Source of the DNA: Naegleria gruberi
Lineage: Eukaryota
Assembly (NCBI GenBank): GCA_000004985.1
Contig: GG738928.1
Reading direction: 5' to 3' (one strand)
Length of the DNA: 64,000 bases
A program made the position numbers and the translations under genes. The notes under the pieces were generated by a model. It searched no databases and was not told the DNA's origin. It worked only from the letters and a program-made list of their open reading frames with translations. Positions 9,092 through 63,269 of the stretch are shown here, piece by piece. Within the stretch, counting starts at the first letter, position 1. The number at the start of each line of letters is the position of its first letter.

Positions 9092-9164
9092 AAGCGCATA
9101 GCTCAGTCGGGAGAGCAGCAGACCCATAAGCTGCAGGTCAGAGGTTCAATTCCTCTTGTTGTTT
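9092..9164 (+). tRNA. tRNA-Met(CAU)-like, possible pseudogene
   Basis: D-arm TAGCTCAGTCGGGAGAGC. Anticodon stem GCAGA/GCTGC with loop CCCATAA (anticodon CAT). Variable loop AGGTC, T-arm AGAGG-TTCAATT-CCTCT. Acceptor 5' AAGCGCA vs 3' TGTTGTT pairs at only 5 of 7 positions (G3·G70 and C4·U69 mismatch). Confidence 0.45.
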
Positions 9165-16838: not shown

Positions 16839-19284
16839 ATGGCAAATCCAGCCAAATTAAAAAAAATGCGAACTTTATTATCTTTCGTAATCTTGCTCTA
16901 TTTATTCACTATTGTGGTCACAGGTGAGGTGAAATCCATTCAGCAACAACAGCAACGAGAATCCTCATTCACTTTCTTCCTGGATTCTTATCAAGGAACG
17001 GAAACAAATGTTTCATGTCTTGATGAATCCATTCCATGTGTTTACATGTCTCAAGTTATAGACTCGGCACGATCAATATTACAGCTGGGAAACAATTCCT
17101 CAACATTATCTTTAGAGATGAATATTCTAGTAAGAGGAGAAGTAATTGACTGCGATATTCTAATTGACTTTACTAATTTTACATCAAATTTTAAATTGAA
17201 TATTGTTGGGTGGGATGATGACGACTATTTCCTATCATCATGTTATCCTTTTCTACATGTAAATAGTAAAATAGATGAGTTGACCATTGTAAAGGGGTAT
17301 TCAATTCGAATAATAATTGTATTTAATTATGAAATGAAGAATTTATCCATTTCTAAATGTAAAGGAAGTCTTACTATTCAAACTTCAATTGAAAATGCAA
17401 ACATCTTGGAAAGCGAATTTAATTCATTAGAAATTACAAGTCAGATTCAAAATCTTGTTATACTAAACGATTCGATTACTTACTTACAAGGAAATTTGAA
17501 AGCTAAACAAGTGAAAATGGAAACTATTAATATTTCCAATTTTAAATTAGTGGAAATTAAGAATTGTCATTGGAGTTCATTCTCAGGGACAAGTTTATTT
17601 CATGGCGGAGAGAAATTCTCAATTCTTTCAAGTATTATTACAGGCCCAATGATGTTTGAAGTTGTGAGTGTTTTGGAAATAATCAACGTCACTGTTAGCA
17701 GGGTTAATTTTGAGCCAGAGAATGGAAATTTTTTTGGAATAGCCACAGTTGACCAAGTGACAATTGAAAGATGTAATTTTGTGGATAATACTATTGGTGG
17801 AAGTATGATTTCAGTACAACGTTGTAAAAATTTACTTATTGTTAATTGTAAACATTCCAATAATTTATCCAAGTTTATTACAATCCTGTCATCTAGTAGG
17901 AATCGAATTACAATTCAAGATTCTGAATTTTTCAATAATCAGGCAAGTGATGCCTTAATTGTTTTTGATTCCAATTATGTTGTAGATAGCACTATATTAC
18001 TATTAGATAATTGTAATTTTGTGAATAATATTGGAGGATTGACTGGATCCGCTCTGAAAATAACTAAAGCTAATGTTCTCATTTCGAGTTGTAACTTTTC
18101 ATTTAATAAGGCAGGTTATGGAGGAGCTGTCTATATGATAAGTCAACTTTCTACTGTTATCGAATATTCAAATTTCACTAACAATGAAGCAACTCAATCA
18201 GGCGGTGCAATTTATGTGGGAGATGTTTCAAATCTACGACAATGGGAAACAGTAGAAACAATTTGTGATTCTAATAACGCATTGGAAGCTGGAGGATGTT
18301 TATATATGAAAGGTAAATCAAAGATTGATGTGGTGTATAATTTTGCTGGAATCAATAAGGCAATTTGTTATGGTAACAATATTGCTACAGAACTCACAAA
18401 AAAGAAGTTTGAATTTAGACTCAATGGATTCGAATATCAATTGATTACCAATCAGAGTATTCAAATTTATCCAGGAGAATCCCTGGATTTGAGAATTATA
18501 TTATCAGATAGATACAATCAGAAAAGTGTAATGCTTCCTGAAAATCAAATGTCTATGAAAATCAATTCTAATAATTTAGTTTTACAAACACAAGGTTTTA
18601 CAAGCGGAAATGATAGCATACTTTCGAATAATATTCAAATACTTCTTAAAGAATATCAATATGCCAACTTCCATGAAGAAACAACTTTTTCATTCATATT
18701 GAAAGATATCGAACATTCGATTAGAATGAAATTGGTTGATTGTCCACCAGGATATACCATTTCTAAAAATTATGGAAATGTCAAATGTGAATACATTCCA
18801 ATAGAAATCATTCTTCCAGCTGCTATTGTTGGTGCTATTTCCTTAATTATTATATTTGTGACTGTAATTTTGGTGGGAATTTATATTGTTAAAAAACTCA
18901 AAAAATTGAGAAGACAAGAAAGAGCAGAAAAGGAAATTCAAAAGAAATTTATTGATAATTCTTTTGTTTTCAATAATGGCAGCAATGGTTCAGATTTGAG
19001 TGTTCCACTGGTTGAAAAATCTTTCAACTCTGAGGATTCTATTCGATACACTATTCCAATTGCAGAAATTGATATATTATCTAAAATTGGAGAAGGATCT
19101 AACGGATTAGTATATAAAGCAAAGTGGAACAGGACAGATGTTGCCATAAAACAATTGAAAACTTTAGGAGAAGAGGATGATGAAGAGTTTGAAAGAGAAG
19201 CTCTTTTAATGAGCTCATTAAGACATCCGTCAGTTGTTAGTTGCTACGGAGTTTCAATAACCAACGACAGCAAGTATATGGTTG
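16839..19284 (+). CDS. Receptor-type protein kinase, exon 1 of 5 (signal peptide, beta-helix ectodomain, TM, kinase subdomains I-V)
   Basis: Signal peptide LLSFVILLYLFTIVVTG. Repeated PbH1-like units (GGSMISVQ, GGAVYMIS, SGGAIYVGD, AGGCLYMKG). TM helix ILPAAIVGAISLIIIFVTVILVGIYIV. Kinase start IGEGSNGLVYKAKW…VAIKQLK. Ends YMVV|GTAAGT. Confidence 0.8.
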
Positions 19285-19329
19285 TAAGTACTTACTTTTG
19301 AGAAATAATTTGAATTTATTGTATATTAG

Positions 19330-19487
19330 GTGGAATACTTGGAAAATGGAAGTCTTGAGAAGGCACTCTACAAGTCTAAAATTGGAAAAGAAAAATTGTC
19401 ATTCGAAACTAAATTGAATATTCTCTTGGATGTTGGAAAGGGTATGACCTATCTCCATTCGATAAGACCTAACAAGATTATTCATAG
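19330..19487 (+). CDS. Receptor-type protein kinase, exon 2 of 5
   Basis: Acceptor TATATTAG. Encodes EYLENGSLEKALYKSKIGKEKLSFETKLNILLDVGKGMTYLHSIRPNKIIH(R). Donor AG|GTAAGT, phase 2. Confidence 0.75.
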
Positions 19488-19541
19488 GTAAGTTTAGTTT
19501 CTATTTACTTTGGAGAGTTAACAATTTTCAGAGATTTGAAA

Positions 19542-19661
19542 CCGGGAAATATTTTGCTTACCAAAAATTTAAATGCCAAAGTGAGTGACTTTGGGCTCAG
19601 TAAGATGGTTTCGAATAATACAGCCACAATGACCACAAATGTTGGAACCTTATTATACATT
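19542..19661 (+). CDS. Receptor-type protein kinase, exon 3 of 5 (catalytic loop to activation loop)
   Basis: Acceptor TTTTCAG. Encodes (R)DLKPGNILLTKNLNAKVSDFGLSKMVSNNTATMTTNVGTLLYI (HRDLKPGN and DFG motifs). Donor T|GTAAGT. Confidence 0.75.
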
Positions 19662-19713
19662 GTAAGTTTTTCACAATATTCCATTTAACTAATTTAGCAA
19701 TTTCCATCTTTAG

Positions 19714-19719
19714 GCACCA
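19714..19719 (+). CDS. Receptor-type protein kinase, exon 4 of 5: 6-nt microexon GCACCA (Ala-Pro of the APE motif)
   Basis: Flanked by CTTTAG and GTAAGT. Omitting it deletes the invariant AP of Y-x-APE; including it gives GTLLYIAPELLSNYHKGQTTKLDVYSFG. Confidence 0.6.
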
Positions 19720-19768
19720 GTAAGTTTTAACAACAAATTAATCATTGATTTATTATTTAATATTTTAG

Positions 19769-20161
19769 GAATTATTATCTAATTATCACAAAGGACAAAC
19801 AACAAAATTGGATGTTTATTCATTTGGACTAATCATGTGGGAAGTTCTATTTGAAATGGTTCCATTTTCCAATGAACTATCTGATGCAACAACACCATTC
19901 TCTATTTTATTACAAGTAACCAATGGATTAAGACCTTCTCTTTCTGTTATGGGAGAACATTTCGAATATATTCAAGAATGGATTGAAGATCACTTTACAA
20001 TGAGAGAAATTCAAAAAATTGGAAAGCAAACCATTGAAAAATGTTTAAAAGATTATATTGAAGTGATGAAACTCTGTTGGTATAAGGAACCAAGCAATAG
20101 ACCAGAATTTATTGAAATTACAGAAAGTTTAGAATTAATTATTGAACAAATAAGGAAATGA
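19769..20161 (+). CDS. Receptor-type protein kinase, exon 5 of 5 (subdomains VIII-XI)
   Basis: Acceptor TATTTTAG. Encodes ELLSNYHKGQTTKLDVYSFGLIMWEVL…CWYKEPSNRPEF…IIEQIRK. Stop TGA at 20159-20161. Confidence 0.8.
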   Translation, partial: ELLSNYHKGQTTKLDVYSFGLIMWEVLFEMVPFSNELSDATTPFSILLQVTNGLRPSLSVMGEHFEYIQEWIEDHFTMREIQKIGKQTIEKCLKDYIEVMKLCWYKEPSNRPEFIEITESLELIIEQIRK

Positions 20162-20560
20162 TGATAATATTTTGACACTCATTCCAATTTTTCCAACATT
20201 CATTGATGGATTATTATCACCCAACTGAACAAGTATTTTAACATTTTCTTCAAGAATAATAAAATTTTGTAATCTTGCACCTTGTACAAGGTGCCTAATT
20301 AGCAACATGGATCAAAATCCAAAAATAAAAAATACAAAATAAAACACATTAAAAAAAACCAATAACAAATACCGTAGTAGCCGCATTATCTTTTTTTTTG
20401 CAAATACAACAACAACACTAGCTACGAATTAATCATCAACAATAACAACAACTACCCTAGCAATAATAATAACTACGCGTTAACAAAATCTATCTTTTTC
20501 GGATATGCCTCTCTTCTTGTAAAATATTAAAACTATAATAATTAAACCCTAGAATATATA

Positions 20561-21130
20561 ATGAACCGTATTTCTGAACCTAATCATACATTACATAATA
20601 CATGGACCTTATGGTATCACAGTCCTAGAAGTAAAATTAATGAACAAAATTATAAGGCTTTTTTCACCAAAGTTAAAGCTTTTACTACAATAGAGGATTT
20701 TTGGCGATTATTTAATAATGTTCGTTCACCATCATGTTTACCAATCGGAACAACATATTATTTAATGAAGGATGCTATTAAACCAGAGTGGGAAGATCCA
20801 AATTGTATCAATGGAGGAGAAATGGTTTTTAGTTTTGCTAAAAAATCAAGACAAGAAGCTGATCAATGGTGGTTGTTCTCTTGTATTATGTGTATCGGAG
20901 AAAACTTTATTGGATTGGGAGATCATATTTGTGGATGTACAGTTGCAAACAGAAAGAGTATGATTAGAATTAGTTTTTGGCTTGATACTGATGAGGATGA
21001 ATACGTCAAACGTTTGGAAGACCAATGCAAAGGTGCATTTGACATTCTCAGTGCTGGCTCAACCTTGTTCAAATTCGATTTTCGATCATTTAGAGCCAAT
21101 TTGTCCAAGATATCGAAAGCTGATGATTAA
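20561..21130 (+). CDS. eIF4E-family mRNA cap-binding protein (paralog 1)
   Basis: WTLWYH…EDFWRLFNNV…YYLMKDAIKPEWEDPNCINGGEMVF matches the eIF4E core (W-x-x-W, EDFW, G-I-x-P-x-WED, GG-x-W). Single exon. Confidence 0.85.
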   Translation: MNRISEPNHTLHNTWTLWYHSPRSKINEQNYKAFFTKVKAFTTIEDFWRLFNNVRSPSCLPIGTTYYLMKDAIKPEWEDPNCINGGEMVFSFAKKSRQEADQWWLFSCIMCIGENFIGLGDHICGCTVANRKSMIRISFWLDTDEDEYVKRLEDQCKGAFDILSAGSTLFKFDFRSFRANLSKISKADD

Positions 21131-21615
21131 TAAATATTGGCAAATCATCATGGACTATTAAGAATTCAATTTTTATTACTTTCAGAATATCTTACAAGGT
21201 TTTTATGTATTCAACAATATCTCACTTGACAATCACTGTTGTTGTAAGGTTGTGTGAACAATAAGAGACCTGTTTAAAGATTTTTAATAGACATGAGCAT
21301 GAGTAAATGAAGGAACCACCTAAAAGGGAATATTCAAATTAATAACAATACATCTCAATTCCAATTCCAATCACATCTTCTTAATTGTTTTGTAAAATTA
21401 TTTTTCAAAAACATCAAATGATGTAATAATTTTTATTAGGCTTGAAGACAAACTCGAAAATGTAAAATTAAAAATAATTATAAAAAAAAAATAAAAGAGT
21501 AGTAATCTAGACGTACCTCGCACTCTTTTACCTTCATCATCAAGCCTTGTTTTATTTAATAATAATAATACATTATCATCAAGCAACAACAATATTACTA
21601 GAATAGTACGATACT

Positions 21616-22071
21616 ATGAGCAGCGAAAAGAAGGTAATTGATCAAGAAGAAATTGAAAATGACACTGAAGCCGAAGTTAATGAAGAAGTAGCAGAAAGGC
21701 CTATTTTAGAAAATACTTGGACATTATGGTATCATAACCCTCAAGCTAAACTTAACGAGCAAAACTATTCTCACTTTTACAATGAAGTCTATACATTCTC
21801 GGATGTTGAAACATTTTGGAGTGTTTTTAATCACATTAGAGGACCTAGTGAAATATCGACCGGTACAACTTACTTTTTATTGAAGGAAGGTATAAAACCA
21901 GAATGGGAAGATCCAAAATGTATTGGTGGTGGTGAATGGGTTTATAGTTTCCCTAAAAAGCACGTTCCAGCTGATCAATACTGGTTAGATTTAGTGATGT
22001 TTTGTGTAGGAGAGTCATTTACTTATTCGGATAATTTGCTTGGATGTTGTGTTGCCAACAGAAAGAATCAA
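21616..22071 (+). CDS. eIF4E-family cap-binding protein (paralog 2), exon 1 of 2
   Basis: WTLWYHNPQAKLNEQNY…ETFWSVFNHI…FLLKEGIKPEWEDPKCIGGGEWVYSF. Donor CAA|GTATGT. Confidence 0.85.
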
Positions 22072-22115
22072 GTATGTAATATTTAAATAATTAATTTATA
22101 ATAACTTTAATATAG

Positions 22116-22286
22116 ATTCGTATCAATTTGTGGGTAGATACATTGGATGAAACAATAGCAAAGAGATTTGGAGAGCAATTCAAATTTGAAGCCTTAAAAA
22201 TAGGAGCAAATACAAATATCAAAATAGACTTTAAATCTTTCAAAGATCAATTGGACGGTAAAAAGACAGTTTTACAAGTAGTGTAA
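22116..22286 (+). CDS. eIF4E-family cap-binding protein (paralog 2), exon 2 of 2
   Basis: 44-nt intron (22072-22115) ending TATAG. Exon encodes IRINLWVDTLDETIAKRFGEQFKF…, parallel to MIRISFWLDTDEDEYVKRLEDQ in paralog 1. Stop TAA at 22284-22286. Confidence 0.75.
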   Translation: MRINLWVDTLDETIAKRFGEQFKFEALKIGANTNIKIDFKSFKDQLDGKKTVLQVV

Positions 22287-22414
22287 ATTCCTTTTTAAAA
22301 TGAATTTCAAAACGAACTCGACTGAAAAGGAGCTCATTATCGTTCGATTCAGAAAATCTTAAATAAATAACAAAAAAACAATATAAAATTTATCTAAATT
22401 TAGGTAAATAATAT

Positions 22415-23893
22415 TTATATAGCCTCAATTAAATGATAATTCTTCTTTCCTAATCTCAATACAGCAATTGATCCATTACCTGCCACAAGATCAGCTTCTG
22501 TCATGACATATTTTGGATCTATTTGTCTCTTGTAATTAATGTAAAAACCTCCACTCTTGATCAATTTACCCAATTCAGATTTGGATGGTCCAAGCTTGAG
22601 AGCTAAAGCAATATCTATAATTGGCTTAGATAAAAGATCTTCCTTTGGTACTTGTCCACCAACAGAATCCTTCATTAGTGATGTAATATCTTTCTTTGAT
22701 AAGGTCTTTAAAATTTCAATTGCTTCCTCACTGCTAGCTCCAAATAATAAATTTGTACATTTTTGTACCTTTTCCAATTGTTCCTTTCCGTGAATTTGTG
22801 TTGTTAATTCTTCAGCAAGTCTTTGTTGAGCAATTCTCTTTTCTGGTTGCTGATTGTGTTCTTGTAAGATTTGGTCAATATCTTCCAAGCTAACAAATGT
22901 TAACATTTTCAATAATTTCTCCACATCAGCATCTTGAACTCTGAGGAAATATTGATAAAAATCAAAGACAGAAGTCATTTCAGGATTGAGCCAGACAGCA
23001 TTACCCATAGATTTACCAAATTTAACTCCATCAGCAGTTGTGAGTAAAGGAATTGTCATACCACTGCATACTGATTGACAACTTTCTGGCATGGCTGTTT
23101 GCTTTTTCTTTATGAATTCCAATCCACTTGTAATATTTCCCCATTGATCAGATCCTCCAATTTGAAGTCTTACGTTATTTGAGTTCAATAAATGGAAAAA
23201 ATCATAACTTTGGAAAAGTGAGTAGGAAAATTCAGTAAAAGTCATACCACCATTATCAGCATCAGCATTTTCAACTCTAGATTTAACACTGTCCAATCTT
23301 AACATGTTAGCAATTTGGAAATATTTTCCAACATTTCTCAATAAATCAATCATTTTCATTTCTCCCAACCAATCAGCATTATTGACAACTGTGACATTGT
23401 TCTTAGAGGAGAAGAAAGAATTCATTTCTCTCTTCAATCCTTCAATATTATTATTAATTGTTGATTCATCCAAGAGAGGTCTCTCTGTTTTTCTGCCACT
23501 TGGATCACCAATTCTACCAGTTGCACCACCAACAAGACAATAAATATGAACATTCTTTGGATTAAAAGCCAATTGGAATCTCTTCAAAGTTTGAAGAACA
23601 AGCAAATTGCCAACATGAAGCCCCGAAGCTGTAGGATCAAAACCAGCATAAATACCAATAGACTTGGCCAATTCACTACCACTGTTCATTTCTTGCATTA
23701 AATTATCAAATCCCGAAGTAGCATCATTATAAATTCCTCTCTTTTTTAAATCGGAAATAAATTCATTATTATTTGATGATGAAGTTTGATTAAATCTCCT
23801 TTGAATATTGTTTCCTCCGATTAAATACTTTCTGTTCTTTAAAAAAAGGCCCGAGTCAACAAGGCTTGTTTGACGAAGAAGGCTTCGTTGCAT
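22415..23893 (-). CDS. Tyrosyl-tRNA synthetase, mitochondrial (bacterial-type class I TyrRS)
   Basis: N-terminal presequence-like MQRSLLRQTSLV. HIGH-type motif GLHVGNL, KMSKS-type KFGKS, C-terminal S4-like domain. 492-aa single exon. Confidence 0.85.
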   Translation of the reverse strand: MQRSLLRQTSLVDSGLFLKNRKYLIGGNNIQRRFNQTSSSNNNEFISDLKKRGIYNDATSGFDNLMQEMNSGSELAKSIGIYAGFDPTASGLHVGNLLVLQTLKRFQLAFNPKNVHIYCLVGGATGRIGDPSGRKTERPLLDESTINNNIEGLKREMNSFFSSKNNVTVVNNADWLGEMKMIDLLRNVGKYFQIANMLRLDSVKSRVENADADNGGMTFTEFSYSLFQSYDFFHLLNSNNVRLQIGGSDQWGNITSGLEFIKKKQTAMPESCQSVCSGMTIPLLTTADGVKFGKSMGNAVWLNPEMTSVFDFYQYFLRVQDADVEKLLKMLTFVSLEDIDQILQEHNQQPEKRIAQQRLAEELTTQIHGKEQLEKVQKCTNLLFGASSEEAIEILKTLSKKDITSLMKDSVGGQVPKEDLLSKPIIDIALALKLGPSKSELGKLIKSGGFYINYKRQIDPKYVMTEADLVAGNGSIAVLRLGKKNYHLIEAI

Positions 23894-24074
23894 TTTTTTT
23901 CAAAAATTCAATCAAAATTAATTATCCTAAATTGGATATTTTAAATAATTATTTTCATATGTTTTTAACTATTAAATATTAAGCTAATTTTATTAAATTA
24001 TGAGTATTGAATTAATTCTCGCAGTCAACTTGATATTTAATGTTGTAAAAAATATTTAAAAACATTTAAAAAAA

Positions 24075-29732: not shown

Positions 29733-31778
29733 ATGCCTTTAAATGCATCGAATGTATCCAACAGAAGTAAGGATGATGTGATCATCGAGGATGGGTATAC
29801 AGCATCTTCATCGTTATCGTCATCCTCATTATCGTTATTAAGGGCAGGTGATAGTAAAAGCTGCAGTAGCTGTTCAATAGAAGCAGCAACTCCATGGAAA
29901 CAAGATACATCCTCATCATCAACATCAGATGACTTCATAATTCCTATTCGGAATGGTAGGAGCAACTCTCGCCAATTCATAAAAACACCATCCTTTTCAT
30001 CCCTTTCAACAATAATAGATTCTTCACTTCCATCAACGCCTAAATCATTGCCTTCATCACCATCATCATTACAAAATCATCAAGAAGGAACAGAACCACC
30101 TCTTACTGATACTCTCCTAGTTAAATCGATGAGCGAATGTAAGAATGACATGGAGAGGGGCATGTTGAACATGTTGGCTGATAAGAAGAATCTTCAGAGA
30201 TTGGTCGGAATTCTCTTCATCTTTGCCACTCTACAAAGTGTTCAACAAATGACACTCTATGAAAATTTATTGAATATTGCCTTTTTCCTTGTTCAGTGCC
30301 TTAATAATTATTTAAGACAAACTAATAATGATACAGCTCTCACCTATGAGGAATCATTCAAACATTTGGATAAAAGAGAAATTATAAGAACTGTTTTTTC
30401 AATGGTCATGTACACTTTGAGAATGATGTATCTTCCCAAACACAAGATGATTTTCCTTCCAGTGCTTTTTATTTGGTTTGCAGGAGCTAACAAACTATAT
30501 ATCTACTCTACATTTTGGGGATTACTACCCACTTACTATGCTTCAGTGATGTATATATCGTTGGCTTGCTATTTTGGATTTTATGAATTGTTAGAGAATG
30601 GGTACACTGAGACATTTCTAAATTTAATGATGGATTACTTTATTTTGGTGGCTGTGGTGTGGATGTGGACATATTATCTGGTTAATGTAACTGGATTCTT
30701 GAAACACAAAGTGGACAAACTGAAGGAAACAAGGAAACGTTTGGAAAGTGCTTTGGAAGCACGAAGTAGATTCATTGCACATGTGAGTCATGAATTCCGT
30801 TGTCCAATCATGTCCAGCATTGGGTGTTTAGAATTGTTGAAAGAAACTCCTCTGAATGAGAAACAAAATGATCTCGTAGATACAATAGTTTCATCGAATA
30901 GTGTCATTCTTCTATTGATTGAAGACATTTTACAAATTGTTAAAATTGAACATGAAAGTAAGGGTGCAAAGAAGGAAGATACAAATATTCAACCTTTCAA
31001 TATTTTCGAATCATTGAAATCGCTGAAAGGAATAATTTCTGGTTATGCTTCGAATTTTAAGGTTAAGCTTAATTTGGAAATTGATGAAGGAATTAAGAAC
31101 TTGACAGTTTTATCAAATCCTTCAAAGATCCATCAAATACTTTCTAATTTGCTGACGAATGCAGTGAAAGCATCAAAGAAAGATGATGATGTTTGGCTTA
31201 AATGCAATATTTTGGAAAAGAAAGATGATGAAACTGTAAAGATTAGATTTACTTGTCAAGATTTTGGATGTGGAATTCCTCCTAATTTGTTGGAATCTAT
31301 ATTTGAACCCTTTGTACAATTGCAAAATAATTCACAATCAAAAGTACCTAGCTCTGGGCTAGGATTGACTACAGTATCTCATTTAATCAAGACATTGAAT
31401 GGAACTATTAACGTTGAATCACAGGTTGGAATAGGAAGCTCATTTACAGTTGACTTGGCTTTTAAAATTGTTCCAAACGAGGTAAAATATAAAGTTCAAG
31501 AAAATGTTGTTGTAGAAGAAAAGAGATCGAAACTACACTTGAACGTTCACAAGAATTACTTGAACCTGATGTCACATTTAGAAGAAGGTGAAAAGGAAAT
31601 GGAAGAAACTCCAAAATTCAATTCCAATGTTTTGATAGCTGAAGATAATCCAATCAATAGAAAAGTTATTGTAAAGATGATTAATAGTATGGGAAGTGAA
31701 ACTGATTTTGTTTGTGATGGAAAGGAATTGGTTGAAAAGTTTAATCCAAGCACTCACAAAGTTGTATTTACTGATATG
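29733..31778 (+). CDS. Hybrid histidine kinase, exon 1 of 2 (S/T-rich N-terminus, multi-TM sensor region, HisKA, HATPase_c, first half of receiver)
   Basis: H-box FIAHVSHEFRCPIMS. N-box LLTNAVKAS, G1 DFGCGI, G2 SGLGLT. Receiver start VLIAEDNPINRKV…VVFTDM. At least 5 hydrophobic helices lie between residues 200 and 330. Donor ATG|GTAGGT. Confidence 0.85.
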
Positions 31779-31824
31779 GTAGGTAGCTCAAATTTCGTTT
31801 TTTAAGGTCTAATAACAATAATAG

Positions 31825-32010
31825 AATATGCCAAATATGAACGGATTAGAAGCAGCCAAGAAATTAAGAGAAAAATTTGGAAATACTTTCAGGATTTATC
31901 TCTTGACAGGAAATGTCACAATTTCATTATCTGATGAAATTGGTGTGTTTGATGGAGTGTTAACTAAACCTTGTTCTAAACAGGATTTGAAAAAATGTTT
32001 GGAAAATTAG
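31825..32010 (+). CDS. Hybrid histidine kinase, exon 2 of 2 (rest of receiver domain)
   Basis: 46-nt intron (31779-31824) ending AATAATAG. Encodes NMPNMNGLEAAKKLRE…LLTGNV…LTKPCSKQDLKKCLEN. Stop TAG at 32008-32010. Confidence 0.8.
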   Translation, partial: NMPNMNGLEAAKKLREKFGNTFRIYLLTGNVTISLSDEIGVFDGVLTKPCSKQDLKKCLEN

Positions 32011-32730
32011 AAATTAGGATCCAACCTGTTGCTAAATAGTTTTAGATTTTCACAGTCTGTTTCATCCAATGCTGAACTGTACTACGTAGTCACAATTCGA
32101 CAGCCCTGATATTTCAAACTGATACTAAATGGATGTTTAACATCATGAGATAATTAATATAATAAATAATCCAAATAAAATTGAAATTGAAAAAGTGGAA
32201 TATAATAATAATAATTTAATACTTTATATTAATATTTGTATTGAAGTACACAACTTGTGGACATTATCGAAATCATAAGTAAATCTTCCACTTTCCAAAT
32301 TAAAAGTTGTCTGCTAACTTCTTGAAACCAATCTATTGATGTTAATAGTGACTATAATCAATTACCACAGAACTTTCGTTTACAATTTTCTATGGATTGT
32401 TGTTGATAACATGTTCTATTAATTGGTAAAAAGTTTTGTTGTATGTGATATTTGTAACATTTCAATTATTAATTTTGGACGGGAAGCCTGCCAGGAATAT
32501 GGCGACTATCCCGCTACTTTGACTGTATGAACAGTGAAGGCAAGAGTTCTGGACGAATCTTGTTGTGTTCAAATAACAGGTTGTTGAAGAATTAAACAGG
32601 TTTGATCACCCCCTATTTATTGAACATTCGACATGTTGAATTACTTGATGCAAATTTTGGTTTGATAATTTTAGATCAAATCGAAATTGAAACTTCTGAT
32701 TTTATTTACAATATTATATCGATTTGGTAT

Positions 32731-33165
32731 TTAACAACCTCCTCTCAGTCTCAACACTAAATGCACAGTTGAATCCTTTTGAAGATTGTAATCACTAACT
32801 GTTCTTCCATCTTCCAATTGTTTTCCTGCATAAATCAATCGTTGTTGATCTGATGGAATTCCCTCCTTATCAAATATCTTTTGTTTCAAATGTTCAACAG
32901 TATCATTCGATTCCATTTCAATTGTAATTGTCTTTCCAGTTAGGGTTTTTACAAAAAGTTGCATTCCTCCTCTCAATCTCAATACCAAATGAAGTGTTGA
33001 ATCTTTTTGAATGCTATAATCATTAATAGTTCTTCCATCTTCTAATTGTTTACCTGCAAAGATGAGTCTTTGTTGATCGGATGGAATTCCTTCCTTATCT
33101 TGAACTTTTCTCTTGACATTTTCAATTGAGTCATTATGGAATTTCCCTTGAAAATCTTCAACAAT
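32731..33165 (-). CDS. Divergent di-ubiquitin-like open frame (5'-truncated Ub-like unit, then a full Ub-like unit ending RLRGG-C); possible pseudogene or missing upstream exon
   Basis: Unit 2 is [77 protein letters not shown], about 75% identical to canonical ubiquitin. Unit 1 starts at [28 protein letters not shown]… directly after an in-frame TAA (33166-33168) and has no ATG. Confidence 0.55.
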
Positions 33166-34101
33166 TTAACTGAAACAATTCGAAGTATTTTTAGAAAAGT
33201 GTTCAAGTGTTGCTAACTTTTTTTAAGGACATGTTGAACAACTTTGTTTCACGACGCAAATTGTTGACTTGCTGTTCATTCATTGTAACTGCAACCAGCA
33301 AAAAGCATCAAGAATTATCCTCTATGAATTTTCTTGATAGAAAGTGTTGATTTTCCTTCAAGTTTACTCGAATTGTTCTTTTCAGCATGCATCGTGTGAT
33401 AAACAAGCTAGCACTTTTCGCTTGTGAAATCTATTTCCTGTTGTTCTTGTTCGAAATTAGTGATATTTTAAACTATTACAAACTAACCATACAACCTCAT
33501 TCCCATTTCATCATCAAGTAGTAAAGCGAGTGAAGTTTTTCTTGAATTCCACCATTAAGAACAAGGTAGGAAGGTAATCAATTCGAAGTACATGTTGTTT
33601 CAAATATTGGGGATTGGTTTAATCTGCATGTAAACTCGTATTCAAATCATATATGATGATTGTCCATGTGTACATGTCCACATGAAGTGGTAATTTTTTA
33701 GTCAGTTATCAATTTATTAATCACACAAGTTTCAATGAGTTCCCATTCAATGGATTGAAGCTGATGTGATCATGACGGTTAAAAGAGAATATTGTAAACT
33801 AAATATCCTCCCTATTACAATAATCCCACTTTTGCTGTATCCTATTCGATAGTAAGATGCATTGGAAGAAACTGAGGTGTTACCATTCCTCTTACTGACT
33901 TCTCAATAAGGTTGTTCCACAAATGTTCAACCAATTCAATTCTCAGAAAACCATTGAACTCTATTAAACTCCATTGTAACTGTTGTAATCTTATTCTTTA
34001 AAAATTGCTATAAATTCATATTACCATTCATTCAATCATTAAACAAATCAAAAAACAAATTCAACAGCTGAATAACTCAAAAACTATTAAAATCTTAAGA
34101 A

Positions 34102-34638
34102 ATGACTGAACAAACTCACGAAGAATTATTCAACCAAAACATGTGTGGAAGTGGTTTGGCATTCAAGAAGGTAGTTCGTGAATTATTCAACAATCGAATT
34201 GTTCCTGCTACTAAGAATCTTCAACAAGTCAATCCAAAGATGATCATCTTGTTGGATTGGGCTTCTCTTGCTGCATTGCCAACTGAAACCAAGTACAAGT
34301 ATGGTGATAGATTTGCTGAAGATACCTTGTTGAATAATTGTATCAAATTCTTAACCGAATGTCCAAGATTGAGCAATATGGGTGAAATTGGAAAGGTTTT
34401 CATCAAGGATCCTGATTGTAAGGATGCTTTCATGGGATTGGAAAAGTTGATTTTCAGAGTTGTTCACAATGCTGATAGTAAGGATTCTTCTGGTTTCCTT
34501 GGCTATTCTTACAAGGTTAATGGTTCTGATTTCGTTGTCACTTTGGAATGCAATTTGACTCTTGTTATGAAGGTTGCCAATGAAAGACAAAGTCCATCTG
34601 CTGATTCAGAAGCTAAAAAGTTGATTAATGCTTTCTAA
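34102..34638 (+). CDS. Hypothetical protein (178 aa)
   Basis: Clean single ORF with ATG in A-rich context. No recognisable motif. Confidence 0.5.
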   Translation: MTEQTHEELFNQNMCGSGLAFKKVVRELFNNRIVPATKNLQQVNPKMIILLDWASLAALPTETKYKYGDRFAEDTLLNNCIKFLTECPRLSNMGEIGKVFIKDPDCKDAFMGLEKLIFRVVHNADSKDSSGFLGYSYKVNGSDFVVTLECNLTLVMKVANERQSPSADSEAKKLINAF

Positions 34639-34732
34639 TGATTTTTTAAATGGCATTACTTAATGAATCAATATTGATATCAATAAAAACAAGCTTCTTT
34701 GTTGAATTTGTATTAAAGTGTAAAATCTGCAA

Positions 34733-34737
34733 CAAAA
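34733..34737 (-). terminator. Pol III T-run terminator downstream of the 5S gene
   Basis: TTTT(G)TT on the minus strand immediately 3' of …GTAGTC. Confidence 0.4.
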
Positions 34738-34855
34738 GACTACAGCACCACAGGTTCCCAAGTTGTCTCCAACCTCAGCACTGATGTGGCTCGACGATGC
34801 TTAACTTCTCAAATCGGACGGGATGAGGTGCATTCATCGTGATATGGCCGTAGCC
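34738..34855 (-). rRNA. 5S ribosomal RNA
   Basis: Minus strand reads GGCTACGGCCATATCACGATGAATGCACCTCATCCCGTCCGATTTGAGAAGTTAAGCATCGTCGAGCC…TTGGGAACCTGTGGTGCTGTAGTC (118 nt). Helix I is closed by GGCUACGG/CUGUAGUC. Conserved CCCGUC-GAU…GAAGUUAAGC and UGGGAA…GGUGCUGUAG blocks are present. Confidence 0.85.
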
Positions 34856-35648
34856 ATTCACATCCTTAATATTAAAGTTTATTAATATTGTAAAACGTAT
34901 AATTCTATAATTGGAAATTTCATTCATTTGACTATCAGAAATTATTAACTTCGACATATATTGAATTTGCAATATTATTATCCTAAAAAAGAAAAGAATG
35001 ATAGAAAGTTGTGTAATCTATTTTTAAAACTAGAGTGTTGAAGTCTTAATTTCCATATTGAAACTGTTGGTTAATTTAGAAACCAATAAAACCACAATAA
35101 CAAATACAATTTCTCTTTTCTCCTTTCCAAAACTATATTTTAGAGCTAATTATATTGAGTATTACAAATAGTTACCATTTAATGGAACAACAGACCACTA
35201 AGTCAGTGAATCTCCCTAAGTAACTGGAAGATCCACTTACTACTGGTAAAGTAGTTGGGAATCGAGAGAGAGGATTTCTTAAAAAAGAAGTCAGCTCTCA
35301 ACATATCCCGATAAGATGAACTGTATGTAATTCTTTTGCATATTTTGATAAGGAAATTAAAATTGTCTGACGTAATTTGTACGAAACCTGCAATTTTGAA
35401 ATTCTTCAATAAGATTCCAATTCAAGAGCTGCCACAAAATGAAAAACAACCTGTTGAAAATAAATTTCTCTTTTAAAATCAAATAAAAATTAAGAACTAT
35501 CATATTTTATTAACACAGCTTCTTATGATAAAGGTTGTGTTAATAAAATTAGCTTAAACTGCAATAGCTCATAATAAATTAGTAAAAGATTTAATTTGAA
35601 TTATCTTTATGAACTTTAGAGTATAAATTATAGTTTAATAAATTAATC

Positions 35649-36725
35649 TTAGTGTCTTGGACCGTAGTCTCTACTGTCTCTAGGACGAGATTCAAACTCA
35701 TTACGAGATGATCCTTGATTGTTGTTCTTATTTGAATCATTGGTTGTTCTTCCATATGAAGGTCTATCAGAATAATTTCCATAAGATTGATGTCTGTCAT
35801 AATATGCTCCTCCTCTATTGTTGTTGTTATTGTAAGAACGAGGTGGTGGAATTTCAATTTGATTTGAATTATCAGACACTCTACCATAAGAAGATGTTGG
35901 ACCATAATAGGATGAAGAATTATTTCTTGAATCAACTCTTCCATAGTGAGGTGAATTATTTTGTGGAGGAGGGTAAGGTTGATATCTATTATTATTATTG
36001 TTGGAATAGTGATAATCACGAGTTGATCGTGGATTTCTGTATGGTGATGATGGCCTAGAAGATGACGATCCATATCGATCTCGATCATCTCGGAATGGAG
36101 GAGAAGGTGGAGAATAATTATCAGAGTGACGATGATGATCTGATCCATTGTTTCCTCCACGATGATAGTCATTATTATAGGATGATGATCTGCTACTATC
36201 ACGATCATTATCATAAGATCTTCTACCAGACATTGAACCTCCTCCTCTTGGTTCTCTTCCACCTCTTGGTCCTCGTTTCTTTAGCATCTTTATATAATCA
36301 TCTCTCTTCATACCACCATCTTTTCCTCTTCCGTATTGTCTCCCTTCTACGAAACCTGTATCGATGGCAATTTTAAGAGCACGATTATTTAATTTACATC
36401 CTCTACAATATTTAACGCATTCCTCTGCATCGGATCTGTGATAGAACTCAACAAAACAAAATCCACAAGGTGTTAACGTATTTCTATTTAAACCCATTAC
36501 AACTCGCTTAACTTCTCCACATTTTTCAAACAATTCGTATATTTGCTCCTCCTTGGTATAAAAACTTAGATTTTCTACATAGATTGTTGAAGATTGAGAA
36601 AGTGCCCTCTCGAAATCCTCTTCATTTCCGCCCTCATTTACATAGTGTTTTAATAAATATTCATATTCTCTCTTGCTTCCGTGAAAAAATTTTAAAGGAT
36701 GATGAGCTTCGAGAAGATGAGCCAT
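35649..36725 (-). CDS. Nuclear cap-binding protein subunit 2 (CBP20/NCBP2) with long RG/RS/Tyr-rich C-terminal tail
   Basis: [61 protein letters not shown]…[20 protein letters not shown] is the CBP20 RRM almost motif for motif. The track start at 36788 is a GTG; the real start is ATG at 36725 (AAAAAAAATGGCT; MAHLLEA…). Confidence 0.85.
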
Positions 36726-37056
36726 TTTTTTTGTATCTAAATTTTTATTCTTCCCCTTCAACATTAATTCATCGAGCCTTCTTTGCACAAAGGAATATCA
36801 ACACCACAAACATAGCTTAGCATAGCAGACAAAGAGGCTTTGACAGAGTTGTGGATTCTTTGCCATCACCCTTGACTAGACATGGTACAAGAAAACATTT
36901 TGCACAACATTGGAATGCCCTTTGAAATGAATTATCATAACATACACACCATTAATACCTTACTGCCCTCTTATTGTGACAGGTCCATTTATCTATTGTT
37001 TATTGTCACAGCACAGTATGAGGACACAGTAATGAATTAACATCTTCTTTTAAAAA

Positions 37057-40000
37057 ATGCCTCAAGATAGAAGGGCCAACCTCTTGCTCTTGATTATCAC
37101 AGTTATTTTGTGTTTCGCAGCAACGGCCGACTTGTCTAAGGGAATTTTAACGGAGGCAGAATATCAAACCTACATCTCCAATTCATGCCCTTCTAAGCCT
37201 CTCTCCACTGATGCTTGGTACTCTGAGGAAAGTAACTTGATAAATATTATTCTTGCGGGTGATAATTCAAAGCTTCCTCTGATCTACCCTCAGGAGTATT
37301 CGACGAATAACACTATTGTAAGGGATGATATTCTCAATACAACTACAACAAGCAACTCTTCACCAGCAACAACAATATTACAATCAGGAAACAATACAAC
37401 AGTGAACAACTCCTCCTCAACAAGCAACACAACTATTACCATTATTCAAGGGTGGGATGATCTTCTCAAAGTTCTTAATGAGACTTTGAAACCCAACGCT
37501 ACCCTCGCTGATAACTCAACAAGTGGAAATAATAGTTCTCTAGGATCGAATGGTTCAATCATTTTTAATTCCACCAATTCACAAACAACTACTAATGGAA
37601 ATGTACCTCTGTTGAATACTACCCTTAACTCAACCACAAACTCTAGCCCTTCTGTTGGAACAAATACAACAAATACTCAGTTATCCTCCAATACAACCCC
37701 TAGTGTTATTTCGAATAGTACTGGTACAGCTTCGACAATCAATTCCACTAATGCTAACCTGAACACAGTGAATGGAACAAGCGGAAGTACAGAAATTGGT
37801 TCGACCTATGGATCCAACAGCACTTCTGGTCAAGGTAATAGCACAACCACGAACACGCCATTTGGTTCTAACTCTAATTCCATAGGATCAACAATAGTAA
37901 CTAACGGAACTGTTGCAGCCGGTGCAATTTCTAGTTCAACAGTAACCTCAAACGGTGGGTATGTTGGCTCCAATACCTCTGGTTCAATAAGCACAACTTC
38001 AACTGGATCTAATAGCCAAGGATTAGGATCTAGCTCCTCCACAAATGTCTCTGCTAATAATACTGCAACTGTTAGTGGACCTTCAAGTGGATTTAATTCT
38101 ACTTCTGGGGCAACTTCTGGGGCAAACAACGGTTCCGTTACAACAAGTACTGGAACAAATGGTCAATCAACTACTGGAACAAGCTTAGGATCGACCTCCT
38201 CTAATGGTTCAAACAGTGGTTCAACTAATGGAACAAATACAGGTTCCGTTTCCACAAGTACTGGAACAAGTGGTTCCTCTTCAAGTGTTTCAACAAACTC
38301 AGGATCAACAAGCTCTTCTAACTCTGGTTCAACTAATGGAGCAAACACCGGATCAATTGGCGTTTCTAACTCTGGATCTTCTATTGGAACAAATACTGGT
38401 TCTGGTTCAACAATCACTGGAACCAGTTCAGGTTCTTCAACTAGTTCTAACACCAATACAGGAAACAATAATGTCTCCAATTCTGGATTAAATGGTCAAG
38501 GAACAAATTCTACTTCAAGCTCCTCAGCTACTAACATTTCAGGTTCAAATAATACTGGATCAAGTAATCAAGGAAGTAATTCAGGATCCAGTTCTACTGG
38601 AACAAGTAGCACTTCAAGTACTGGATTAAATGGTAGCGTTTCTTCAGGTGGTTCTAACACTGGAACAAATGGAGTATCAAATAATGGATCAGCAACTGGC
38701 ATTGCTCCCAATGTCTCTGGAACAAGTGGTAGTTCCTCTTCAAGTGTTTCAAACACTGTCTCCTCAAACTCAGGTTCGAGTGCTAATAATACTTCAACTG
38801 TTAGTGGACCTTCAGCAGGATCTAATTCTACTTCTGGAACAACTTCTGGAGCAAACAGCGGTTCCGTTACAACAAGTACTGGAACAAACGGTCAATCAAA
38901 TTCTGGAGCTAGCTCAGGATCTACCTCCTCTGGCTCTTCAAGTGGTTCGAACAGTGGTCCTGGCTCTAATACTGGTACAAGTGATACTAATACAGGGTCA
39001 ACAAGCTCTTCTAACTCTGGTTCTTCGAGTGGAGCAAGTACTGGTTCAGGTTCTTCAACAAATTCTAACACTAATCCAGGAAACAACAATGTCTCCAATT
39101 CTGGATTAAATGGTCAAGGAACAAATTCTGCTTTAGGCTCCTCAGCTACTAACATTTCAGGAGCAAGTAATACTGGACAAGTTCTACATCTCAAGCTCTG
39201 GATTAAGTAATTCAGGATCCAGTTCTACTGGATCAAGTAGCACTTCAAGTACTGGATTAAATGGTGGCTCTTCTACAGGTGGTTCTAACACTGGAACAAA
39301 TGGAGTATCAAATAATGGATCAGCAACTGGCATTGCTCCCAATGTCTCTGGAACAAGTGGTAGTTCCTCTTCAAGTGTTTCAAACACTGTCTCCGCAAGC
39401 TCAGGTTCGAGTGCTAATACTTCAACTGTTAGTGGACCTTCAGCAGGATCTAATTCTACTTCTGGAACAACTTCTGGAGCAAACAGCGGTTCCGTTACAA
39501 CAAGTACTGGAACAAACGGTCAATCAAATTCTGGAGCTAGCTCAGGATCTACCTCCTTTGGCTCTTCAAGTGGTTCTACCAATGCTGGACCCAATTCTAG
39601 TAGTAATTCAACGGTCAGTGGTGGTTCTTCAAATGCATCTGGTTTTACAAGTACTGGACCGAATACTCAAGGTGGTTCATTATCTGACTCCTCAAATACT
39701 GGAACTGCTAGCACTCCAAGTGCTGGATTAAGTAGTGGATCTTCTTCAGGTGGTTCTAACACTGGGACAAATGGAGCATCAAATAATGTTTCTGGAACAA
39801 ATGGTGGTTCATCTTCTAGTGTAACAAACAGTGGTTCTGGTTCTAATACTGGTATTAATACTGGAACAATTGGCGTTTCTAACTCTGGATCTTCTATAGG
39901 AACTGGGGTAAATACTGGTGCTGGAGCAAGTTCAGGATCTTCAACAAATTCTAACATCAATACAGGAACCAATAGTGTCTCCAATTCTGGATTAAATGGT

Positions 40001-54179: not shown

Positions 54180-55502
54180 ATGGACAAACGACAAAGACAA
54201 GATTTTGAAAATCCTCAATTAATTAATTCGGAAGAGAAAGCAAAAAAGGTTGCAAAAGTCCAACAAGATGTATTTTCAGATGATATTTGTTTTGAAATAA
54301 TTTCAATGCTTGATGATTCGTGGTTTATTTTAAATACTTGTTCATTAATTTCAAAACAATTCTTTAAGGTGATCAAGGAACGTTCAAAACTTGCTATTCA
54401 ATTTCAAAAGAAATTTACAGAGAAACGAGTTAAATTATTCATGAAAAGTCAATTTATGAATAGTATTGTTAAAGTTAAATTTTCTAGTCGGTTGCTTCAA
54501 GCCATAGAAACCCCCAAATTGATAAGTGCAATGAAACAATTAACATCACTTAATATTTATGACAATGGAATTGGTGATGAAGAAATCAAATACATCAGTG
54601 AAATGAAACAATTAACATCACTTAATATTGGTTACAATAGAGTTGGGGATGAAGGAGCCAAATATTTAAGTGAAATGAAACAATTAACATCGCTTAATAT
54701 TGGTTACAATAGAGTTGGTATAGAAGGAGCCAAATATTTAAGTGAAATGGAACAATTAACATCACTTAATATTGGTTACAGTAGAATTGGTATAGAAGGA
54801 GTCAAATACATCAGTGAAATGAAACAATTAACGTCACTTAATATTTCTAAAAATGAAGTTAGCAATGAAGGAGCCAAATATTTAAGTGAAATGAAACAAT
54901 TGAGATTACTTAATATTTATCACAATGAAATTGGTGATGAAGGAGTCAAATATTTAAGTGAAATGAAACAATTAACATCACTTCATATTGGTTACAATAG
55001 AATTGGTCTAGAAGGAGTCAAATTGATAAGTGAAATGGAACAATTGACATCACTTGATATTTCTGAAAATGAAATTAGTGATGAAGGAGCAAAATATTTA
55101 AGTGAAATGGAACAATTAACATCACTTAATATTGATTACAGTAGAATTGGTCTAGAAGGGGTCAAATACATCAGTGAAATGAAGCAATTAACATCACTTA
55201 CTATTGCTTACAATAGAATTGGTATAAAAGGAGCTAAATTGATAAGTGAAATGAAACAATTGAGATTACTTGATATTTCTAACAATGAAATTAGTGATGA
55301 AGGAGCCAAATATCTAAGTGAAATGAAACAATTGATATCACTTTATATTTCTGAAATTGGAATTGGTATAAAAGGAGTCAAATACATCAGTGAAATGAAA
55401 CAATTGAGATTACTTGATATTACTCGCAATAGAATTGGAAAAGAAGGAGCTAAATTGTTAAGTGAAATGAAACAATTGACACCACTCTGTTTGGAATTGT
55501 AA
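54180..55502 (+). CDS. F-box-like / leucine-rich-repeat protein with ~14 near-identical 28-aa RNI-type LRRs
   Basis: N-terminal F-box-like DICFEIISMLDDSWFILNTCSLISKQFFKV. Then repeats MKQLTSLNIGYNRVGDEGAKYLSE iterated with few substitutions. Confidence 0.75.
   Translation: MDKRQRQDFENPQLINSEEKAKKVAKVQQDVFSDDICFEIISMLDDSWFILNTCSLISKQFFKVIKERSKLAIQFQKKFTEKRVKLFMKSQFMNSIVKVKFSSRLLQAIETPKLISAMKQLTSLNIYDNGIGDEEIKYISEMKQLTSLNIGYNRVGDEGAKYLSEMKQLTSLNIGYNRVGIEGAKYLSEMEQLTSLNIGYSRIGIEGVKYISEMKQLTSLNISKNEVSNEGAKYLSEMKQLRLLNIYHNEIGDEGVKYLSEMKQLTSLHIGYNRIGLEGVKLISEMEQLTSLDISENEISDEGAKYLSEMEQLTSLNIDYSRIGLEGVKYISEMKQLTSLTIAYNRIGIKGAKLISEMKQLRLLDISNNEISDEGAKYLSEMKQLISLYISEIGIGIKGVKYISEMKQLRLLDITRNRIGKEGAKLLSEMKQLTPLCLEL
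54520..55480 (+). repeat. Tandem 84-bp coding repeats (LRR units), highly homogenised
   Basis: AGTGAAATGAAACAATTAACATCACTTAATATTGGTTACAATAGAGTTGG…GAAGGAGCCAAATATTTA recurs with >90% identity about 11 times. Confidence 0.85.
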
Positions 55503-61902: not shown

Positions 61903-63135
61903 ATGGCTAAAAAGAAGAATAATAATAAGAATAAGAATTCAGCCTCTTCGGCAACAACACCAGTTTCACCAGTGAGTGAAGTCAGTGAGGATAATAGTAT
62001 TGAAGAAACTGTTACATCATCAACAACAATGGAAGAGGAACAAACAGTATCAACAACAACTCAAGAATCTACAATTGATGAAGCCTCCACAATAACTTCT
62101 ACCACTGAACAACAAGAAGAAGAAGAAGCCTCTGATAAAATTCAACAACCTGAAGAAGTAAATTCATCATCTACAACAACAGCCATTGTTACTGAAGGAA
62201 TACCAACAACTAACACTGTTGAAACATCTGATTCTATTACTACTACTAATACTAATACTACTACTATTGATAATAACATTCCAACAAGTAGTACAACAAC
62301 AACAACAATTGAAGAAGAAGAAGAAAAAACAAATCAAAAAAGTGAAGAAGAAATTATAACAGAAGAAATTGAAAAATTAAAAGAAGATTTAACTGATCGT
62401 GTTAAAGTAGTAAGAGAAGAATTAGAATTACAATATGAAATTGAAATTAAAAAATTACAAATTGATCATCAAGAATCTTTAAAAAAACAATTAGATTTAT
62501 ATGAAAATAAGATTAATTCACTTGTTGAAACTCATAAATATGAAATTGAACAATTAAATGCTCAATTAAAACAAAAAGATGAAGAAAATTTAAATGAATT
62601 GGAAAATATTAAATTATTAGAAATTAAATTACAAGATCAATTAAATGAAAATAATTCTAAAGATTTAATAATTAATAATTTAAATAATAATATTGAAAAT
62701 TTAAATAATAATATTAATAATTTAAAAAATGAAATTGAAATTAAAAAATCTGAATTAAAAGAAAAAAATGAAAATTCAAATGAATTAAATGAAACTATTA
62801 AAAAACATTTAGAAAAAATTCAAAATTTAGAAAGAGAAGAATTAAATTCATTACAAAAAATTAATCATTTAAATCAACAATTAAAAACAACAAGTGAAAA
62901 GAATTCTGAATATGAAAATAGAATTTTACAATTAGAAGAAGAATTAAAATCACAAAAAGAAAATGAAACAATTATTTTACATAAATATTATCATCATGCT
63001 TTATTAGCTGTAAAATTAACTTTATCAAATATTAATTTTTCAGTTCCAGATTTGTTAGATGATTGTATTAAAGAACAAGTTAAAGAAGAAGATTTAGATT
63101 CTTGGATTACAAAGAAATTAGAATTACAAAATTAA
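61903..63135 (+). CDS. Coiled-coil protein (acidic/Thr-rich N-terminus, ~250-aa heptad region)
   Basis: Single 410-aa ORF with ATG at 61903. EEIEKLKEDLTDRVKVVREELELQYEIEIKKLQ… continuous heptads. No enzymatic motif. Confidence 0.55.
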   Translation: MAKKKNNNKNKNSASSATTPVSPVSEVSEDNSIEETVTSSTTMEEEQTVSTTTQESTIDEASTITSTTEQQEEEEASDKIQQPEEVNSSSTTTAIVTEGIPTTNTVETSDSITTTNTNTTTIDNNIPTSSTTTTTIEEEEEKTNQKSEEEIITEEIEKLKEDLTDRVKVVREELELQYEIEIKKLQIDHQESLKKQLDLYENKINSLVETHKYEIEQLNAQLKQKDEENLNELENIKLLEIKLQDQLNENNSKDLIINNLNNNIENLNNNINNLKNEIEIKKSELKEKNENSNELNETIKKHLEKIQNLEREELNSLQKINHLNQQLKTTSEKNSEYENRILQLEEELKSQKENETIILHKYYHHALLAVKLTLSNINFSVPDLLDDCIKEQVKEEDLDSWITKKLELQN

Positions 63136-63269
63136 ATATTTTAATATTTATAATTATAAATAAAAAAAAACAATTTAAATTATTAAATCATAATGTGTTT
63201 TAAATTGTTGTTGATGAAGAAGAATATTTCAAAAGTTTAAATTATTATTAAATAAATTATTAATCAATT

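Follow-up and report, generated by a model that had tools for sequence, protein, structure and literature searches.

The window analysed here, a 64,000-nt stretch of Naegleria gruberi DNA, carries on its minus strand a genuine, full-length 5S rRNA gene (34737..34855) that stands alone between two Pol II genes. The gene belongs to the dispersed 5S family already published for N. gruberi, and its arrangement is already known. It is probably an ordinary working member of that nuclear family and, as such, presumably expressed.

An Rfam scan with cmscan at gathering threshold returned a single match to RF00001 (5S_rRNA) in the whole 64 kb, with a score of 100.8 bits (E = 7.3e-21) against a gathering score of 38. 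The match spans model positions 1-120 of 120 and is untruncated. A first-pass annotation of this DNA had described a complete 118-nt 5S rRNA on the minus strand at 34738..34855 and had proposed the RF00001 scan as a check; the score lies well over the threshold, and the two sets of coordinates differ just by the final U, which the shorter one omits. When the Rfam structure was transferred to the 119 nt of the window copy, 34/34 pairs were standard. Helix I, whose closure had been called canonical, is a helix of 9 pairs running from G1-C118 to C9-G110, 2 of them G-U.

An alignment of 11 5S sequences, comprising the window copy and 10 relatives, supports the same fold. In this alignment 98.4% of cells are paired on the Rfam structure, and compensatory changes on both sides occur at 16 pairs. 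None of 500 shuffles equalled the observed pairing and covariation values, and in a control in which the partners were slid by 1-3 columns pairing dropped to 29-43%. Pairing and covariation together recover the three-arm structure (helices I-V) by which 5S rRNA is recognized. The positions of the gene, its putative control elements and its neighbours are collected in Table 1.

Table 1. Features of the 5S rRNA locus in window coordinates; the T runs were read from the sequence, and gene positions (+/-) count from the 5S start.
Feature	Position	Strand	Remark
5S rRNA gene	34737..34855	(-)	119 nt by Rfam match; 118-nt RNA if the last U belongs to the terminator
A/T-only run AATATTAATAAA, candidate TATA-like element	34878..34889	(-)	-34..-23 of the gene
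Box A-like internal control element GTTAAGC	34799..34805	(-)	gene +51..+57; putative function
G77, loop E AGUA reads AGUG	34779..34779	(-)	Rfam consensus upper-case A; cmscan match line blank there
Box C-like internal control element GGTTGGAGACAACTTG	34759..34774	(-)	gene +82..+97; putative function
First T4 run, putative Pol III terminator	34734..34737	(-)
Second T4 run, possible backup terminator	34722..34725	(-)	within the ~28-nt 3' trailer
178-aa Pol II gene	34102..34638	(+)	convergent with 5S; stop 98 nt from the 5S 3' end
CBP20/NCBP2 homologue, Pol II gene	35649..36788	(-)	same orientation as 5S; its stop precedes the 5S start by 793 nt

The family to which the gene belongs was described by Feng et al. 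2012 (PLoS One, PMC3369914), who reported 279 putative 5S genes in the nuclear genome of N. gruberi, apart from the rDNA units. We recomputed its statistics from the coordinates of the 279 hits in their Table S1. At least 110 nt are covered by 264/279 hits. The hits are spread over 117 scaffolds, 57 of which carry exactly one, and neighbours on the same scaffold are separated by a median gap of 33.9 kb. Gaps below 5 kb are found in 32/162 cases and a gap below 1 kb in 1/162. Given a median spacing of 34 kb and a single gap under 1 kb, to stand alone between Pol II genes is the normal condition of an N. gruberi 5S gene. The clearance visible around the window 5S is 29 kb, and 154/279 copies are without a listed neighbour within that distance. 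The genome of N. gruberi is roughly 41 Mb; taken at about that size, it holds about one copy per 150 kb, and one 5S gene in a 64-kb window is therefore expected.

The window copy fits this pattern. It is single, non-tandem and unlinked to 18S, 5.8S and 28S genes, and it agrees with the published family in organism, in length (117-120-nt hits in Table S1), in the lack of a link to rDNA and in its internal control region, TATA-like element and T-runs (PMC3369914). BLAST of the 5S sequence against the 64 kb found no second copy or fragment, Rfam found no other rRNA there, its remaining matches being two tRNAs, and a more permissive scan of 32500..37200 added no further Rfam match. The earlier observation that no other rRNA lies nearby is thus confirmed by both methods. 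The gene is almost certainly one of the rows of Table S1, and probably scaffold_87:125774-125890, an assignment that we infer from scaffold size rank: the length of its contig, 160,583 bp, compared with at least 163,722 bp for scaffold_85, gives a rank of about 86-87, where scaffold_87 is the sole Table S1 entry, scaffolds 93 and 97 being further possibilities.

The 18S, 5.8S and 28S genes of Naegleria are located only on a circular extrachromosomal element (CERE) of ~14 kb, present in thousands of copies per cell, and 5S is not among the genes listed for it (PMC5805870). PMC10586121 also places the large rRNA genes of Naegleria on a plasmid. The first-pass annotation had suggested counting 5S copies genome-wide and examining their linkage to rDNA, and had named hundreds of identical copies in rDNA arrays, with this one clearly degenerate, as a case that would speak against it. 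The published count answers both points, with 279 putative genes on 117 scaffolds that are not with the rDNA (PMC3369914 Table S1): hundreds of copies exist, outside rDNA arrays, and the adverse case does not apply. The same annotation had offered a choice in which a dispersed chromosomal copy would either mark a different lineage or be an orphan or pseudogene copy. The first alternative was right. Orphan is wrong, as the gene is one of 279 family genes on 117 scaffolds, and pseudogene is mostly unsupported by a full-length gene with intact helices and a high Rfam score, the exception being G77, to which we return below.

That the host is N. gruberi, a member of Heterolobosea within Discoba, is established by the proteins encoded in the window. 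Ten window ORFs were compared by exact sequence with a protein collection, and three of them are residue-identical to N. gruberi NEG-M proteins EFC36587.1, EFC36623.1 and EFC36627.1, all on one contig, and the 178-aa neighbour of the 5S gene also matches N. gruberi. The dictyostelid origin implied by the first-pass annotation was mistaken; the GC content of ~32% is the likely source of that guess. Histidine kinases may also have contributed to it: at 29733..32010 (+) the window encodes a hybrid histidine kinase that has HisKA and HATPase_c domains and the first part of a response-regulator receiver. This receiver domain apparently continues in the ORF 31828..32010, past a gap of 22 nt that resembles a frameshift or a short intron.

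These observations leave next to no room for the reading that the 5S sequence is an artefact, whether from contamination, from an organelle or from mis-assembly of the rDNA plasmid, and nothing was found in its favour. The gene sits inside 64 kb of contiguous DNA of ~32% GC, flanked on either side by genes for exact N. gruberi nuclear proteins, and the genes listed for the CERE are 18S, 5.8S and 28S, not 5S (PMC5805870). The 5S genes nearest to it are of eukaryotic type and lie on contigs that are AT-rich in like degree.

Several other features of the window were recorded. Positions 19080..23909 are 98.8% identical to a 4.8-kb contig of a public metagenome assembly, L016 (ENA ERZ929261, k127_258943; run ERR1078381, PRJEB11402), which encodes an identical tyrosyl-tRNA synthetase; this level of identity indicates a second N. 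gruberi strain or haplotype in the ERR1078381 sample. A tRNA-like sequence with a CAU anticodon at 9092..9164 (+) scores 45.8 bits against an Rfam threshold of 29 and was missed by ARAGORN. Its acceptor stem has 2 non-standard pairs, and its folding energy is no better than that of shuffles (z = 0.06). A pseudogene of tRNA-Met or an atypical tRNA is the probable reading. Within the ORF 54180..55502, which may be the gene of a repeat-containing protein, 13.5 tandem copies of a unit of 72 nt (24 aa) occupy 54514..55486, with a higher-order period of 216 nt. At the end of the window (62001..64000) the GC content is 14-21%, against ~32% elsewhere, and short AT-only tandem repeats occur at 62677..62740 and 63878..63935.

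The spacer that holds the 5S gene measures 1010 nt from the stop of ORF 34102..34638 (+) to the stop of ORF 35649..36788 (-). The earlier description of an intergenic region of about 1 kb between a hypothetical gene and CBP20 holds for both of its neighbours. ORF 35649..36788 contains an RRM_1 domain (Pfam, E 1.9e-16) and matches nuclear cap-binding protein subunit 2 chains in the PDB with E = 3.7e-39 (phmmer). On the other side, the 178-aa protein has no Pfam family, and its matches are N. gruberi proteins at 60-96% identity together with two ENA metagenome proteins. The 178-aa family is multi-copy, with at least six N. gruberi paralogues on separate scaffolds at 60-96% identity. The exact 178-aa product is missing from the protein collection in which the three other window ORFs are present; the reference may lack an annotation for this copy or have a different gene model for it.

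We considered whether the 5S gene might be a fixed partner of the 178-aa family and rejected the idea: on the contig L001, no 5S lies in the 324 nt downstream of a paralogue of the 178-aa gene. L001 comes from the same assembly as L016, and its first 30 nt match the tandem repeat at 54514..55486. Between the 5S gene and CBP20, 320-465 nt upstream of the 5S, lies a hairpin-rich and slightly GC-richer island of 145 nt (35176..35320). Its predicted folding energy is far below that of shuffles for either strand (plus, z = -3.8; minus, z = -4.2; 0/200 shuffles equally stable). The island has no Rfam match at E <= 1, and the ORFs of at least 25 aa that cover it are short TTG-start frames, the longest of 68 aa. 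The island may represent a small RNA that has escaped annotation, or it may mean nothing.

Related 5S loci were collected in two ways. A 24-nt pattern from the most conserved region of the 5S sequence led to 14 metagenome contigs, each of which holds a single 5S by Rfam. No protein candidates came from a 40-aa query that closed with the peptide of the sense frame across the 5S, and a chimeric query made from the other five reading frames led to one protein (P0015) and through it to the contig L017. This contig of 6.4 kb and 39% GC carries one 5S at its end, 109/115 identical to that of the window, and its called genes include a linker histone and a polyprenyl synthase. Its helix IV differs from the window copy by paired compensatory changes, GCCACA/TGTGGT becoming GCTGCA/TGCAGT. 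L017 is Naegleria-like in its 5S. The closest relative is on L006, which is close to Naegleria and where the 5S is 117/119 identical to the window copy, scores 106.3 bits with RF00001, compared with 100.8 for the window copy, and lies 165 nt upstream of a divergent 361-aa ORF. At most of the other loci among the 14 the 5S is just about 75% identical to that of the window, and these loci therefore come from other organisms. Exact searches gave no match for a 35-mer from the 5S in bacterial and archaeal genome contigs, for a 24-mer in viral contigs, or for a 31-mer spanning G77 among metagenome contigs, and a text search of the literature with the 5S sequence itself yielded no papers.

Eleven of these contigs (L002-L005, L007-L011, L013 and L014, with VFQM/VFQO prefixes and from 1-2 metagenomes) carry a second 5S type, ~75% identical to the window copy where full length. 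The base just 5' of the gene is a pyrimidine on those that include the flank, and a TTTTACT(T/C)TT trailer is common to several. Each has one 5S and its own upstream flank, and the AT-rich eukaryote behind the VFQM/VFQO contigs seems also to have scattered 5S genes.

At the 3' end of the window gene, the T-run that had been reported as a terminator is present as a T4 run at 34734..34737, immediately at the gene end, and may act in that role. The first T of the run is the final base of the Rfam match, the gene end reading ...GTAGTCTTTTG. In 10/12 related loci 3-4 T follow directly after the gene, the gene's own final T being counted where present; at the remaining two, L015 and L012, a 6-T run begins 7 and 5 nt farther on, respectively. 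The flanks of the 14 metagenome contigs and one ENA contig do not match the window flanks beyond the gene, with the exception of a ~28-nt 3' trailer on L006. BLAST aligns L006 with window positions 34709..34857 at 92% identity, that is, the gene plus 28 nt of 3' flank and at most 2 nt of 5' flank. The shared trailer suggests either that the terminator region is conserved or that the gene duplicates within a unit extending a little beyond it.

The second of these possibilities bears on a reading in which the locus is a 5S-derived mobile element, a SINE or retroposed copy of the Cassandra or SINE3 type, in place of a ribosomal RNA gene. The dispersal of the family and the ~28-nt trailer common to L006 at an unrelated locus look as if copies had spread in a unit slightly over gene length. 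The match, however, extends over the full 5S model and no further, and the locus is without a 3' tail domain, poly-A, LTR or flanking repeats. No repeats of note occur in 33000..37000, and the window contains no second copy of the 5S flanks. The sole repeat in the flanks is a 9-mer, ACTTTAATA, read by eye; it lies partly inside the conserved 3' trailer and so is unlike a target-site duplication. Intact full-gene copies that covary are what real 5S genes look like, and we regard a mobile element as very improbable. A search for a transposon or target-site duplication around the 5S was likewise negative, with no flanking repeats or poly-A, and that candidate was rejected.

For the 5S genes of N. 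gruberi, PMC3369914 reports an internal control region, terminators formed by T-runs and a TATA box upstream of the gene. The box A-like GTTAAGC of the window copy agrees exactly with the core of the box A consensus given there, a degenerate one, and is the sole such match in the gene. Its box C-like element has 2 mismatches to the box C consensus of the same study, T85 and A92; the pair that they form is U-A in the window copy and G-C in most relatives. The intermediate-element consensus matches at 12 places within the gene and is too degenerate to inform. Upstream, the A/T-only run would fit the TATA box of PMC3369914, a tentative correspondence given that the entire flank is AT-rich in a genome of ~32% GC.

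Compared with the type-1 Pol III promoter of Xenopus and yeast, in which box A, an intermediate element and box C are bound by TFIIIA, the window gene is alike in having putative box A-like and box C-like elements at the expected positions and a T-run. It differs in the two mismatches of its box C and in its host. Because no recognisable TFIIIA homologue was found in N. gruberi (PMC3369914), the classical type-1 mechanism cannot simply be assumed. We therefore speak of a putative type-1-like promoter and stop short of calling it type-1.

For an ordinary working gene, these elements suggest the following course of expression. Pol III would be recruited through the box A-like and box C-like internal control elements, and the A/T-rich TATA-like element near -30 may assist. 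Transcription would start at or beside G34855 and terminate in the first T4 run, with the second T4, 12 nt farther on, as a backup. The resulting RNA of ~118-119 nt would fold into the standard three-arm 5S structure and enter the large ribosomal subunit.

A feature that sits less well with such a course is G77. The conserved loop E motif consists of AGUA opposite GAA, from which the window copy departs by this single base, the GAA strand (G99, A100, A101) being intact. In eukaryotic loop E the A at this position participates in the non-Watson-Crick core of the motif. Column 77 is A in 10/10 aligned relatives, including L006 and L017; these relatives come from metagenome or ENA contigs. The second difference from L006, T24, concerns a weakly conserved position of loop B, and L017 has the same base there.

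G77 lowers confidence in the full function of the window copy, not in its identity as 5S. It could mark a variant or decaying copy, a young pseudogene of a large dispersed family in which A77G breaks loop E (AGUA/GAA) and the RNA is unmade or is not stably held in ribosomes. No other sequence in the alignment of 11 has this substitution, the Rfam consensus at this position is an upper-case A, and the closest relatives both keep the A, with L006 scoring higher than the window copy. The family is, furthermore, heterogeneous: in Table S1, 161 copies share the commonest similarity value, 40 are one step lower and 27 two steps lower, and the row that probably represents the window copy, scaffold_87:125774-125890, lies one step under the class common to 161 copies. 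Against decay, there is one substitution only: every helix is intact, as are the terminator and the elements resembling box A and box C, and the Rfam score greatly exceeds the threshold. G77 might also occur in all N. gruberi copies. On balance we consider a decaying copy unlikely, although it is the most serious of the alternatives weighed here.

A further view takes G77 not to be a dead-copy mutation at all: the window copy would be either an expressed and used variant, giving two kinds of 5S in ribosomes, or an example of a base common to most N. gruberi copies. We hold this to be rather improbable. If G77 were present in most copies, it would represent a lineage-specific remodelling of a loop E motif that is conserved in all aligned relatives.

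As an ordinary member of the dispersed family, the window gene can be set beside 5S genes of other organisms. The first-pass annotation had stated that in Dictyostelium discoideum 5S is carried on the extrachromosomal rDNA element, and this is borne out by PMC5391098 and PMC1635290. Like Naegleria, D. discoideum has its large rRNA genes on a multicopy extrachromosomal element. The D. discoideum element, however, also carries 5S (PMC5391098, PMC1635290), whereas the Naegleria plasmid carries only 18S, 5.8S and 28S (PMC5805870) and the 5S genes are chromosomal. Since the large rRNA genes of Naegleria are not chromosomal, 5S is its only chromosomal rRNA gene.

Scattered single 5S genes are a rare arrangement, found in Neurospora crassa, Schizosaccharomyces pombe and Acanthamoeba castellanii (PMC1635290). 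Like N. gruberi, these organisms have single 5S genes along their chromosomes amid Pol II genes, with no tandem arrays. In contrast to the two fungi and to A. castellanii of the Amoebozoa, Naegleria belongs to Heterolobosea, and its large rRNA genes are non-chromosomal. Table 1 of PMC3369914 scores 'tandem arrangement' of the N. gruberi 5S genes as present. The Table S1 coordinates of the same study fit scattered single genes with loose clusters at 1-5 kb better than that label.

A solitary 5S gene is surprising only against the organism that had been assumed for this DNA, and the assumed organism was wrong. The window copy and the other ~280 5S loci merit annotation as non-coding RNA genes, the public gene set covering proteins. 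Two corrections to the literature follow: the label 'tandem' for N. gruberi 5S in PMC3369914 should read 'scattered', and a statement in PMC5805870 holds for 18S, 5.8S and 28S, not for 5S. If 'scattered' replaces 'tandem', Naegleria joins the rare class formed by Neurospora, S. pombe and Acanthamoeba, and is alone in that class in having 5S as its sole chromosomal rRNA gene.
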